A stretch of 64,000 bases of DNA from assembly GCF_964204645.1 (NCBI RefSeq), contig NC_134028.1, positions 14,329,653 through 14,393,652 of the forward strand, in the 5' to 3' direction. The translations under genes were made by a program, and so were the position numbers. This stretch comes from Tubulanus polymorphus. Its lineage: Eukaryota; Animalia; Nemertea. Shown here one piece after another: positions 18,059 to 50,630 of this stretch (within the stretch, counting starts at the first letter, position 1; every line of letters begins with the position of its first letter). The notes under the pieces were generated by a model. The model did no database searches. It was not told the origin of the DNA and was given only the letters and a program-made list of their open reading frames with translations.

Positions 18059-18087
18059 TCAAATTTCAATAAAAATATGTATTATAA

Positions 18088-18441
18088 ATGGAGAGTAAAC
18101 AAGCGCACAGTGAGAACAACAAATCATTTCTAGATAGAATAAAAGATACTTCAAATGTCAAATCAGTAGATTATAAATTTAAGAAGTTAAAAGAATTAAT
18201 AATCCATAAGAAATATCTAATTACAAATATTGATACAGTTACTAATAACTATGGAGATAAATTAGTTATACACTTAGAAAATGAAGGACTAAAAGGAAAT
18301 ACACATAAATTCAGAACATATTTACCAGATAGATTTCATAGATTATCAAGTGAAGATCTAGAAGAATTATGTTCTGGAGATTTCTATTTCGTATACAAAG
18401 GTAAGAATGAAAAGGGGCACCATGAAATAGATTTCGAATAA
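18088..18441 (+). CDS. Conserved Polinton small protein, possibly OB-fold ssDNA-binding
   Basis: Intact 117 aa, conserved at 44570-44923; FKKLKEL..NNYG..YLPDRF pattern; function inferred. Confidence 0.7.
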   Translation: MESKQAHSENNKSFLDRIKDTSNVKSVDYKFKKLKELIIHKKYLITNIDTVTNNYGDKLVIHLENEGLKGNTHKFRTYLPDRFHRLSSEDLEELCSGDFYFVYKGKNEKGHHEIDFE

Positions 18442-18458
18442 GAAAATATGTAAAATAA

Positions 18459-44951: not shown

Positions 44952-47900
44952 ATTAACACTTTAGAATTCTTTTCATTATCTCGTTCTCTTTTGTTTCTTC
45001 TCTTTTAAATTTCAAGTATTAATCTAAATTACAACCATAAGCAACTGTATGAATTCCATCATCTAAAATATATCTTTTATCATCAAATGGGTTTAGACTT
45101 ATCTTTTCAATTTCTTCAATAAACATTTCATGATCTTCAGATCTTAAACATCTCATCTTATGTTTTCTAACTTCTTCATTGAATATACAATTGATGTAAT
45201 CTTTGAAATGAATATTCTTTTCTACCACACTTTTGGTTATTCCTTTTAACTTTTTAGCTTCATGTTCTTTAGTTTTATATGAATACATGTTAGATCTAAT
45301 ACCGATGAATTCAATCATTTCTTCACCGCCTAATTCATCCTTAAACTTCCCTGGAACTTTTTTTATTATCATTGCTAAACAATTCATGATCTTTAGGATA
45401 GTTACTAAAATCAAAATGATGTTTTAATGTTTTTAAATCATCAGTTATGTTATCAGTTTTTATCTTTAATATGTAACTGTCGGTATCAAAATATAATATT
45501 TCTATATGTTTTTCTCCAAAAAGTAGTTGTAATACATTATAATAGAATTCATACATTAGTAATTTTGATAATTCTAAAACTGAAGCACCAACATAGATTG
45601 GTTTATTAAATTTCATTGATGTTCTTCTCATCTTAACTGCAGCTAAATGTTCATCAAATATTCTGTTACCAATGAACTTAGGATATGATTGTAAATGTCT
45701 AATTCTTTTACCATTACTTACTAACTCAATATCATTTCTATTTCTAATATTTTCACAAGTCTTACCATAGAATGCATTATTCATTAACTTGAAGAAATCT
45801 TTCTCGAAATCAGTTTTAGCTACAGTTCTCTGTTTGGTGTTAAAATCTATATATTTTTCTAACCACTTAGATTGACTAAATGAAATATAACTATGTACTT
45901 TTTTTAGAATCATTCCTTGACTTAAAACTTTAACATTCTATAATGTACTACATAATTATATTTATCTTCTTGAGTTACCATTAACTTTTCTGTATGAATA
46001 TGATTTTCGGGTTTAATTCTTTTTTGATATTCGATAATTCTTCATGAGTTACAGTTTTATGTTCGGGGCAGTATGCTAGATTTTTAGATTTAAATTTTTT
46101 ATCTTCAGGATATTCTAAATCTACAACAAAGAAGTAACCAGTATCTGAATCATCTGCAATATCTAGGATTCTTTTCTTCCAATCAAATTCATCATTATTT
46201 TCATTCTGTAAAACTTCAGTTAATTCAAATACTCCATAAGGTTGTGGTTCCATCATTGCCCAACCATACAAATTATTTGCATCTATATATAATAACTTAT
46301 ATCCAGGATTATCACTTACATTGAAATATCTATCACCTAATACACCTGAAACTCCTCCTCTTATAGATTTTTCAAACAATAGTAATTGATCTATATTTGT
46401 TAACAAATCCATTTTTATATCTGTAAATTTTAATCCACAATCCCATGTTAAACCTGGACTTGAATAACAATGACAAGGATCAATATTGAAATATTTTAGG
46501 TTTACATCTCTAAACCTTTCGAATATATCGGTTAATAATAATACATCTGATTTTAGATATGAATCTACTAATTGTCCATGATTTTCTATTTTGAAATGAT
46601 TCCAAATATTCAATGTTCTATTATATACTTCATCTTTAACATATTCATTTTTTAATTCATCATAGAATTGTTCTTTCAATAATTCAGTTATGTTAAAATC
46701 ATTATGATTTTTAAAGAAAGAATGTGGAATTGCTCCTTTATATCTCATTAATTGGAAATCATCATTATTTGGGTAGTGTTGTTTTAATATTTTCAATTCA
46801 TCATCGACTAATGATTTTGATAAGTTATCTAATGAACTATTTAAAAATATATATGAATCTATAAATCTTAGGCAACCAAATTGGAATGATATATAATTCT
46901 CAGATGTTTTAGCTAACATTCTAAATTTATAAGTTGGTATTTTATCCTTTGATCTATTTGAATTTAGTCTTTCTATTTCATTATTAATTTCTTCTATTTT
47001 ATGACATAACTGTTTGATGAATAAATGTGCATCATATCCTGATAGATTATGAAATATAACTGGTACAAAGTTAATTTTCTTAGCTTGTAAGTTACAATTC
47101 TCATGTGCAGCGCCTCTAAACTTTCCATTCAAATGATCATGGTCTCTTACTTTTTTATCTTTATAATTAAATATCTTTTCACAATAATAACATTTATCTG
47201 CAAACTCAAATGCTTCTTTATCTTCTTCTGTCATTATAATTTCTATATTTGTATTCAATAATTTACTAAATCTTATTTCATATTCTATTAATAAGTCACA
47301 AAAATGATTGATAACATTTTCATTTCTGTAATGATAATATTCACTTTCAATTAGTTCTGGATAATCAGATTTAATATATAACCCGAAAGCAGCAGCTGAT
47401 TGATGAATCTTTTTAATAGTATTTGTTATTGGTGGTTCTTCTGAATAATCATTTTCATTAGAATTTAATTTCTTTCTCTTATAATATATTTTTTTTCTAT
47501 CTTGATCAGTTAGTTCTTTATTTAATGATTCAAAATCTCCATATATAACAAATGGTACTTTATTTTTGTAATCATATTTTTTTAATTCTAATATTTTATC
47601 CTTTTCATTTGGTAAAACTAATTTACAATAATCATGATTTTCACATAATTGTTTATGATTTAATAATGCACTTTCAGTTCTGAATTTATGTAAATATTTT
47701 CTACATAGATATATTTTATTATCAAAATCATTTTCTGATTTAAAAAATAAATCAATTCTTTTAATCCACATATAATGATTTTCATAATATAATATATCTA
47801 TAACATCATTTGAATCATAATCTTTTGATAGATATGAAGGTTCTAATGTATAATGTTTTATATTGTTACCTTTTGTATTTGGTAATTTGAGTAAATCAAA

Positions 47901-48983
47901 CACATTTATCTTTATATTATTATCTCTTTCTATTTTTGGGATGTTTTTAATTCTAACAGGATACTTATCTATCTTATAATTATTTTCAAATGGTTTATAA
48001 TGAGTTAATCTACAAATATTATCAGTTGCAGGATGTAAGCAACTAATTATAGCCCATAGAAAACATTTATCATCAAAATTTTGTACATTTATTACAGCAT
48101 TAGTTTTAAATGGTAGTTTAATATAACTCGATGCTTCAATATCTGGTTCTTTATAATATGATACATTATTTTCATCTATTGGTTTCGATTTAGTTAACTT
48201 ATTATATTTTGTGTTATAAACATGTAAAGTCATAAATATTATTTCATCAAATATTAAACCAGATCCTTCAAAATATTTCTCTTCTATTTTAGTTTTTACT
48301 TCATTATAACGTTTATCTAATTTTTCATCTATATGTTGTTTTGAAATAATATGTTGTGAATGAGAATTTATATTATATATTGGTTTATCTTCAGATTTTA
48401 TGAATTTAACTTAAGAAGATATACTTATTTTAGGATATTCAACATCAGTTATTATTTTTATTATTTCTTTCATATTTTCTAAATGTTTTTTATTTTCTTC
48501 TAATGTTTTTCCTTTATGAAATTTAAACTCAATAGCTGCTGGACCAATATCACTTTTAAATGCTTCGGTTATCTCTATATCTTTTTTATTATCTAATGAA
48601 TTAATATAATTTCTTACATCTTCCATGTATGGCCTTTTATTGTTTAATTTATTTTTTATGCTTTTAATTGTCTTCTGTTTCTTATCATTATCTTTATCAA
48701 AATAATCTTCACCTAAAATATCATTATTCTTATTTCTAATATGACTTTTAGATTTTAAATGTTCATTATAATATCTTTTATCACTGAATGATTGATGACA
48801 TGTATCACATTTGTATGTTTCTTTTTCATTCTTTAATTCATCTAATTTAGTTTCTAATATATCATCTTTATATTCTAGTTTCAATTTATTCTCTAAATGT
48901 GTTTTAGTTTTATTGTGTCTTGATTTTTGGGATTTATCTATATTGATATTACATGTTGGACAGTAGTACTTATTTGCTTCCAT
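44952..48983 (-). pseudogene. polB: Full-length protein-primed DNA polymerase B with N-terminal zinc fingers and endonuclease VII-like insert; several stops and frameshifts
   Basis: 48411-48983 and 45981-48233 share a frame across one stop; exonuclease (YGDFES, FHNLSGYD) and polymerase (YIDANNLYG, KLMNNAFYGK, YFDTDS) motifs. Confidence 0.93.
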
Positions 48984-50630
48984 TTTAATACTAAATTTTT
49001 TTTAAAATTGATTTTAGAAGTTCTTCATTTATATTTTATTCATGTATATGAATATTTTAAGAGCGAAACTCATAAAAAATGAAAAATAATTCTCGCACCC
49101 TCGAATTTATTTTTCATTTTTTATGAGTTTCACTCCTAATTCAAGTAGAAATTATTGTTATTTTTATATTCTTCATTTTTATGAGCTCGCCCATTCAACC
49201 TTTTACCTAGAACAACTAAACCCCTATTACTAATTGGTTCTCCCAAGAACCCTGTCAAGAACCATTTGATAATATTGAAAGGGTTCTAACAAGAACCCTT
49301 TATACGAAATGGTTCTTCAAAGAACCTTTACCAGGGGTTCTTCAAGGAACCCTACAAAAAAGGTTGTTTGAAGAACCTTTAGGGGTTCTCCCTGGGAGGC
49401 AAGCCCAAGAACCCCTAAAGGTTCTTAGGTAGAACCCTTTGTTCTAAGAGTGCATGGTTGACAAACAGTGTTGGGCCTGTGCCGGCGGTTGGTGCGAATT
49501 GGGGCTAAAATATGCTGGTTGGACAGTTGGTTAGGTTGTGAAGTGTCGAAGAAAACCTACCGGTATTTATGTGTCTATATAGGCCTATTATAGTAGCCAA
49601 TACCACTTAAAGTACGAAGTTTAACCCGTACGTGACTGTACGGTGATCTCCACAGGTTAACTGTACGTGAGTTCCCTACAAATGCCGTACGCGAGTTCCT
49701 ATAATCTACATACACGCATGCGTGAAAGAATAGGGCTTGAGTTAGGTGAAGCTATTTGTCAACCTACTCATAATCACACGGCTAACCTGTGGAAATCACA
49801 GTACCGTCACGTATGGGTAACAACTGCGTGTTAAGTATTAAGTGAGTACGATAAGCCCACCATGCCTACGTACTACAAACCAAACTTTTTCCTCCCCGTC
49901 GGCCCTACACTGATGTTACTATAACTGGTACCGTACCATAATCACATGGATAGGATTTGGTCAGGACTAGCCTAAAGTCTAATTCAGTCTATGCACTATT
50001 CACTCGATATAATTAAAACAATACTAGTGAAGTATCCACACGCAAAAAGGCTAATTGATTTGAGCCATGCAATTAAAATTTACTCAGGCCTCACTGACCT
50101 GCTGGCATTAATAGTCAATCCTAGATCCAAAACGTTCATGTCGTCACGGCTTGAATACCAGATATCATTGTAGACATTTTGCTGTACGTAGGTTGGGTAT
50201 ACCGATTTCTCCAATCTTGACTGATAAGTGTAGGCCTATGGTACGGCTGTACGCATTATACAATTGTACCAATGGGAATAGGCCAACCTATTGATTGGGC
50301 ATAATATTTCCTGCTTTATAATACTGAAATAAGCCGTTCATTCGTTTCAAATATCCAACATCGGTGAAAGTTTGATTACTGTATACATGTACTGTAGGTT
50401 TTCATGTTGTATGAATAATTTGTAGTTCAAATGGGTATGATGCTGATTCCAATGTCAACACATGAAGTTAAATGGTCAAGGACAGTAATCAACAAGATAT
50501 CCCTCTTCGACCGACGTTGCACCGAAGAATATGATTCTTTCAACTGTTCAACTGTTCGACCGTTCTTTCGAGCAAAGTGATTCAACACGATCACATAACA
50601 CTGGAATAGGTTTGTAGTGACGAACAGTTA

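Follow-up and report, generated by a model that had tools for sequence, protein, structure and literature searches.

Most genes of a decayed, multi-copy Polinton in the nemertean Tubulanus polymorphus begin at a real, conserved start box, ATAAATG, with fixed upstream spacing. The element lies in a 64,000-nucleotide stretch of contig NC_134028.1 (NCBI RefSeq assembly GCF_964204645.1, positions 14,329,653 to 14,393,652 of the forward strand), which we call the window and whose own numbering is used throughout. We identify it as a Polinton because it carries a polB with an endonuclease VII insert, an rve integrase, an A32-like packaging ATPase and a capsid protein of the PF16903 type. We lean towards the view that the RNA polymerase of a co-infecting helper virus of the Nucleocytoviricota reads the box as a late-type initiator, in which case the element would be a virophage-like provirus in need of a helper; such dependence is plausible.

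An earlier note on this DNA had treated positions 18060–49000 as one element. The interval instead covers two inverted Polinton copies, A and B, with other DNA between them. Copy A (15469..22316, plus strand) is partial and broken, and consists of the C-terminal half of polB followed by eight small genes; it ends at ~22.3 kb, where a retroelement interrupts it. Copy B (33702..49231) is near full length with several broken genes; its plus arm holds an ORF211-family gene (ORF, open reading frame), ORF119, the integrase and the ATPase, and its minus arm runs from polB to the major capsid protein (MCP) gene and ORF276. The two copies are 92–95% identical over 15750–22077 and 40518–47336, in opposite orientation. 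GC content is 20–26% at ~15.5–22.3 kb and 33.7–49.2 kb, and 32–43% between them.

We found TAA directly before ATG at all 17 starts that the earlier note had listed, each where it had been placed. The sites are real; six of them are duplicates between copies A and B, and the 17 starts therefore represent 11 distinct genes. A twelfth gene with the box, ORF276 at 37768 on the minus strand, had been missed. The layouts quoted for the starts at 20200, 20651, 39059, 40539, 43187 and 43789 read as written, and enrichment over the AT-rich background held: in copy B, TAAATG occupies 11 of 15 listed starts versus 21 of 372 other sense ATGs (Fisher p=2e-10). The corresponding null for ORF calling is 10%, TAAATG accounting for 67 of the 649 first-ATG-after-stop sites in the six frames of the element, whose DNA contains 69 TAAATG sites in total. 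The combination of TAA with a T6 run was observed at 9/23 listed starts and at 0/529 other ATGs.

The copy B starts that depart from the box were compared with their counterparts elsewhere. The ATG at 34096 lies within a gene: orthologues in two polB relatives (loci L027 and L030) begin further upstream with ATAAATG. ORF144 keeps the box at 20200 in copy A and departs from it in its copy B counterpart (42743, minus strand). The earlier note had set apart the integrase (AAGATG) and polB (TAAAATG); both contexts are as it wrote them, but the polB exception is confined to this copy, as the orthologues in L025, L026, L029 and L030 start with ATAAATG. The integrase is the sole non-box start of copy B that also lacks the box in a relative (L027).

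With positions counted from the T of TAAAT, T−9 and A−1 are invariant across the 12 distinct genes, T appears at −6 once only and a purine follows the ATG; T is found at −10 in 8 of the 12. T−9 and A−1 occur together at 17/20 listed sites (a set that pools copies A and B and includes two short-ORF sites at the termini), versus 6/49 non-start TAAATG sites in the element and 5/58 in flanking DNA. The TAA and the ATG share one frame throughout. Neighbouring genes in the same orientation are separated by 0–32 nt, and the box fits inside these gaps (10 pairs, from copy A and from the minus arm of copy B).

The T-run that had been described before TAAATG is present, with a 6–7 nt spacer, in seven of the 12 genes, and the other five carry an A-run instead. 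The T-rich type comprises the MCP gene (T7, 39057..39075, minus strand) and six nearby genes that are small or unknown: ORF73 (19494..19512, plus; its TAA doubles as the upstream gene's stop codon; twin at 43430–43448, minus), ORF140 (19741..19759, plus; twin at 43185–43203, minus), ORF144 (T9, 20184..20202, plus; no box in the copy B counterpart), the ORF131/259 gene, which neither copy retains intact (20635..20653, plus; twin at 42290–42308, minus), the ORF347 gene in copy A (22040..22058, plus; twin at 40537–40555, minus) and ORF83 (T6, 43787..43805, minus; copy A has lost the matching region). The A-run type comprises ORF117 (18072..18090, plus; twin at 44921–44939, minus), ORF252 (18443..18461, plus; twin at 44550–44568, minus), ORF119 (34456..34474, plus; within the final codons of the gene before it), the ATPase (35906..35924, plus) and ORF276 (37766..37784, minus). 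The T-run might be thought of as a terminator of the vaccinia early type (TTTTTNT); such words also occur within genes.

Searches with polB gave 115 loci, of which 88 entered a quick tree of 89 rows after loci with a best match below 250 aa or fewer than two ORFs had been dropped. In this quick tree the window groups with L025, L026, L027, L029 and L030 in one clade (SH-aLRT 100). Among L025–L030, 15 of 18 ORFs start with TAAATG, the misses being two internal polB ATGs and the integrase; T−9 is found at 11 of 13 unique sites (L026–L028 are near-identical loci), and TAG or TGA never substitutes for the TAA. L030, at 44% GC, retains the box at 3/3 ORFs, whereas L022, an AT-rich Polinton at 22% GC, has it at 1/10. 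Head-to-head gene pairs carry the box on both strands, with ATGs 26 bp apart in L030 and 16 bp apart in L043. The box thus persists over a polB divergence of ~1 change per site and GC contents of 21–44%, and fixed upstream spacing across such divergence therefore argues for continuing selection by a reader.

Beyond this clade, the box is also present in L062, in L090 and in a decayed family (L043, L060, L104 and others) whose fixed T lies at about −10. TAAATG starts are enriched in 13 of the 115 loci (p<0.01, uncorrected), many of the others being short or decayed. Other polB lineages show AT boxes of the TATA or ATCT(A/T) type, and some show none. L062 (1–10700), a separate lineage with a PF21738 MCP and a PLA2 gene, has ATAAATG at 6/9 ORFs, and its nearest neighbours in the tree lack the exact box, a pattern that suggests more than one origin, or loss, of the box. 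ATCT(A/T) lies 8–26 nt before 6/9, 5/15, 4/15 and 3/13 ORFs of L005, L009, L013 and L008, viral contigs that carry related Polinton-like elements, in raw counts set against no null model; the word recalls the TCTA late motif of CroV and mavirus. L003, L021, L034 and L002 are polB relatives without any AT-rich start box; they form a natural contrast group, and host RNA polymerase II may transcribe them. Free-standing endonuclease VII/HNH genes that start with the box follow polB in L025 (5129–5833), L026 (4842–5612) and L027 (4079–4849).

The earlier note had likened the box to poxvirus late promoters. In vaccinia late promoters, T residues are followed after 5–7 bp by a TAAAT(G/A) that overlaps the start (PMC5294985), and the tenth nucleotide upstream is a conserved T (PMC11980589). 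The Polinton box shares this layout, with TAAAT(G) over the start codon, T residues 5–7 bp upstream and a T ~10 nt upstream. Unlike the vaccinia promoter, it has a near-invariant A−1 and a fixed T at −9 (−10 when counted from the first A of TAAAT), and no polymerase was detected in the element itself. The likeness to poxviruses stands; its specificity does not, since iridovirus and virophage contigs carry a similar box, which points to a Nucleocytoviricota late-type start generally and not to a poxvirus one specifically.

Motif scans of viral contigs returned 59 loci, and a second scan at least 120, mostly single chance matches. L132 was found in this way, and its RuvC relatives are named IIV-22, Wiseana iridescent virus and Chloriridovirus anopheles1. 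We then used 24 close iridovirus loci (L175–L198) that were fetched by the RuvC protein and not by the motif, except that L175 is the L132 contig, in which at least one start matches by construction. TAAATG starts account for 10/19, 8/19, 7/17, 7/17 and 6/12 ORFs in five long loci (L176, L182, L193, L197 and L198, respectively), and are few in L181 (2/18) and L189 (2/10). The sequence AATAAATG is found at ~40–50% of ORF starts in the longer invertebrate iridovirus loci. A−1 is present at 67 of 68 unique iridovirus sites and T−9 at 37 of 68; A−2 is almost fixed there (58/60), whereas the Polinton has A or T at that position. In L182 and L193 the genes for PCNA, XRN, dUTPase, PIF1, NIF phosphatase and RPB1 lack the box. 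Among the iridovirus loci a thymidylate synthase gene has it; the replication genes covered mostly do not. The AATAAATG start box of the iridovirus loci also occurs at 45–48% GC (L194, L198). A virophage contig with a Sputnik-type MCP (L299) carries the box at 4/5 ORFs, at least one of them by construction, as this contig and L251 were likewise found by motif.

On these comparisons, an iridovirus helper would fit at least as well as a poxvirus. Iridoviruses have invertebrate hosts and a nuclear stage (PMC5294985), and the nuclear stage would ease access to an integrated copy. We tentatively entertain an iridovirus, or another non-pox member of the Nucleocytoviricota, as the helper, and hold a poxvirus to be a slightly more doubtful candidate.

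If a helper polymerase reads the box, transcription would begin on the A residues of TAAAT, and slippage of the polymerase, as in vaccinia and in the yeast pGKL elements, would yield an mRNA whose poly(A) leader is non-templated. Such a message would not include the T at −3, and its conflict with the Kozak preference would be gone if slippage holds. The late factors of the helper may reach an integrated or excised copy, by analogy with mavirus and CroV. The integrase, without the box, would be expressed in some other way, and the A-run and T-run types may correspond to two timing classes.

Slippage on a TAAAN initiator produces poly(A) leaders in yeast pGKL (PMC6211774), whose linear elements likewise encode a protein-primed polB (pPolB), but pGKL has its own RNA polymerase and capping enzyme and no capsid (PMC6211774). 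EMALE04 elements carry the CroV late motif, and only EMALE04 reactivate on CroV infection (PMC8547959, PMC10945749). Mavirus and EMALE04 resemble the window element in being integrating, multi-copy elements with pPolB and rve genes and a short AT-rich start box, which in their case recurs at the late genes of a large virus and here resembles gene starts of two candidate virus families in general; they differ in their protist host, virophage capsid, TCTA motif, known helper and demonstrated reactivation, the window holding an animal Polinton with an ATAAATG box. Polinton-like viruses found in entomopoxvirus occlusion bodies are Polinton relatives that have been proposed as hyperparasites of invertebrate poxviruses (PMC11296320). 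In that case hyperparasitism was inferred from presence in the occlusion bodies, two of the elements have no known integrase, and the words "promoter" and "motif" do not occur in the main text of the report (PMC11296320).

Several observations weigh against a helper polymerase or against an iridovirus as its source. Poly(A)-signal words are present in 12/12 boxes (AATAAA in eight, TATAAA in four). Coral polintoviruses and a cavefish adintovirus, which belong to other lineages, are reported as transcribed in tissue with no helper named (PMC11131425, PMC8502044). A very divergent self-encoded factor may be present among the orphan ORFs of the element. When sites were scored with the Polinton matrix, iridovirus flanks gave z=6.6, other large-virus loci 2.1, L251 0.6 and non-start sites −0.4; the iridovirus value falls to 2.4 without positions −1 and −2, and the reverse comparison from 5.4 to 1.5, so that the match rests mostly on these two positions, and the iridovirus loci are partly redundant, which inflates the z values. 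The poxvirus set (L251, with an NPH-II domain) has six starts only, too few for its z=0.6 to be ranked. The iridovirus box is unproven as a promoter because the mapped early and delayed-early starts of IIV-6 use other motifs and no late initiator is given in the iridovirus section of the review consulted (PMC5294985). No helper virus sequence was found, and no cargo genes are shared with the 194 viral loci L116–L309, which are mostly unrelated motif matches; the sole matches lie in low-complexity repeat. One possible RNA run gave two short contigs on 33–50 kb and none on 42.65–43.9 kb, which speaks neither for nor against transcription.

The alternatives were weighed against the same evidence. 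Head-to-head boxes, together with the contrast between L030 and L022, are hard on a poly(A) signal, on stop–start coupling and on a TATA box 30 nt upstream. The metazoan TATA box lies ~30 nt before the transcription start, so a TATAAA or AATAAA that ends in the ATG would place the RNA start within the ORF. This counts against a compact core promoter or initiator for host RNA polymerase II, acting alone or with an element-encoded factor in an autonomous element, as do head-to-head genes just 16–26 bp apart. TBP and TFIIB had no Pfam match at E<0.05 in the window ORFs or at E<0.01 in the relatives' ORFs, and ORF117 is predicted to adopt an OB fold in a weak model (best Z 5.5, pLDDT 53) that has no Foldseek match at E<0.001. 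We nevertheless consider host polymerase II unlikely rather than implausible, as the element integrates in the nucleus in many copies and other animal Polintons are reported as transcribed in tissue (PMC11131425, PMC8502044). The presence of AATAAA or TATAAA in every box, and upstream co-oriented genes that end 0–32 nt before the ATG or overlap it, would suit a hexamer that signals polyadenylation of the upstream gene and sits tight against the next start codon, with the T-run as an upstream U-rich element. Yet 3′ processing demands neither that the last A be the A of ATG nor a T at −9, and head-to-head pairs carry the box on both strands with no upstream gene needing it, which leaves this proposal decidedly improbable.

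The invariable in-frame position of the TAA would allow a translational role, the stop insulating the start codon, and a relic of an ancestral TAAAN initiator would likewise involve no present helper. In favour of a relic are yeast pGKL, a pPolB-based system that uses a TAAAN initiator with its own polymerase (PMC6211774), and the AT-rich boxes ending in TATA-like words in many related Polintons. These two possibilities are set against the TAA that is never replaced by TAG or TGA in L025–L030 and the spacing that stays fixed over ~1 polB change per site and GC 21–44%; we rate them together as improbable, though a shade less so than the poly(A) signal. Finally, TAAATG is common in this 76% AT DNA, with its 69 sites in the element, and is favoured by first-ATG ORF calling (10%), so that the starts might be a product of chance and calling bias. 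The frequency of 11/15 against nulls of 6–10%, retention of the box at 44% GC and its presence at only 1/10 starts of L022 at 22% GC make this reading the most improbable by far, and we consider it refuted by the enrichment and by the comparison of L030 with L022.

The gene content of the element is that of an animal Polinton. In the Pfam search of window ORFs, the protein-primed polB (44956..48983, minus strand, in pieces, with the endonuclease VII (HNH) insert) matched PF03175 (E=2e-11), the rve integrase (34838..35925, plus strand, broken near 35665, starting without the box) matched PF00665 (E=2e-9) and the broken A32-like packaging ATPase (35922–36532, plus strand) matched PF04665 at E=2e-5, over the cut-off. 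The MCP gene (37801..39059, minus strand), which has stops and a frame change, matched PF16903 at E=0.001, below the cut-off, and the MCP alignment has 328 homologues besides. Both copies are decayed, with polB, integrase, ATPase and capsid genes all in pieces. Animal Mavericks or Polintons described as adintoviruses (PMC8502044, bioRxiv 2023.08.22.554363) likewise encode pPolB, rve integrase, an A32-like ATPase and a double jelly-roll MCP, and the window polB with its HNH insert appears to resemble the pPolB2/Beta type; the text of these two reports contains no promoter analysis. Compared with virophages (Maveriviricetes), the window MCP matches PF16903 and not the Sputnik MCP families matched by L299. 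Viral contigs scanned with the window integrase and two MCP alignments gave no loci.

Among the remaining ORFs, ORF252 is a putative minor capsid protein, as suggested by a weak DUF5901 match; its predicted structure has a pLDDT of 33, and its sequence has no match in the PDB. ORF276 contains a zinc finger and 24-bp repeats. No maturation protease was matched in copies A and B using the relatives' ORFs. RNA polymerase had no Pfam or PHROG match in the ORFs of the window and clade, a number of which are orphans or have broken frames, and a 697-aa clade ORF gave nine matches, mostly zinc fingers, with no polymerase-subunit signal.

The Polinton family is multi-copy in the host genome. Contigs of sequencing run X1 align to 33–50 kb in large number (21,167), and their depth is flat across the element and far above that of the flanks, although summed contig depth of this run gives no copy number. 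A third, more distant copy is present as fragments at 61500..64000, with polB pieces, a homologue of the 697-aa ORF of L029 and an ORF252 homologue; these fragments include a TAAATG with a T-run at 63616 (minus strand). The termini of copy B share an identical 10-nt word and a short further match, and its flanks contain no target-site duplication. At the left end of copy A (15453–15752) the terminal sequence forms a 145-bp fold-back, and the N-terminal half of polB is missing. Within copy B, a 326-bp insertion with inverted ends, resembling a miniature inverted-repeat transposable element, lies at 41500–41826 and splits the ORF131/259 gene, and many contigs are loose-ended there. The convergent region between the ATPase and ORF276 (36447–36899) holds a duplicated 240-bp unit of short repeats.

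The DNA between the copies (22.3–33.7 kb) consists of a retroelement, an array of 145-bp repeats and other sequence; the array (25814–26997) has about nine 145-bp units that are 70–85% alike. Old remnants of the ORF131/259 gene, 77–83% identical, were found at 11900–12500. An AT-rich inverted fragment pair (1291–1846 and 4412–5150) lies inside a Gypsy-like retroelement and is probably a remnant of a related element; within it is a T-run TAAATG box at 4709 (minus strand). An exon-like piece of a Na+-dependent nucleoside transporter gene (PF07662) at 56756–57097 (minus strand) is consistent with an intron-containing animal genome.

A start box of the ATAAATG type in an animal Polinton was not reported in the openly available literature searched, which included PMC11788076, bioRxiv 2025.10.09.676808, bioRxiv 2022.07.28.501842, PMC4542343, PMC13215967 and bioRxiv 2023.08.22.554363. 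New here are the clade-wide conservation of the box, the head-to-head test and the iridovirus match. Animal Polintons have capsid genes and no RNA polymerase, which raises the question of their transcription and spread. A box at the start codon that could not serve as a normal polymerase II TATA box and matches the late-type starts of large viruses makes helper dependence testable. More speculatively, a large share of the Polintons of aquatic animals may be endogenous, virophage-like parasites of animal Nucleocytoviricota, the start box of each lineage being tuned to a different helper: ATAAATG to invertebrate iridoviruses or poxviruses, and TATA- or TCTA-type boxes to others. The present family would then provide the first case of a Polinton that hyperparasitizes invertebrate iridoviruses, and its numerous copies in the germline could serve as an inducible defence. 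The match to iridoviruses suggests, as helper, a family with known invertebrate hosts and a nuclear stage. If helper dependence is true, the virophage strategy would reach beyond protists into animals, and the box might be used to predict the virus family on which each Polinton lineage depends.

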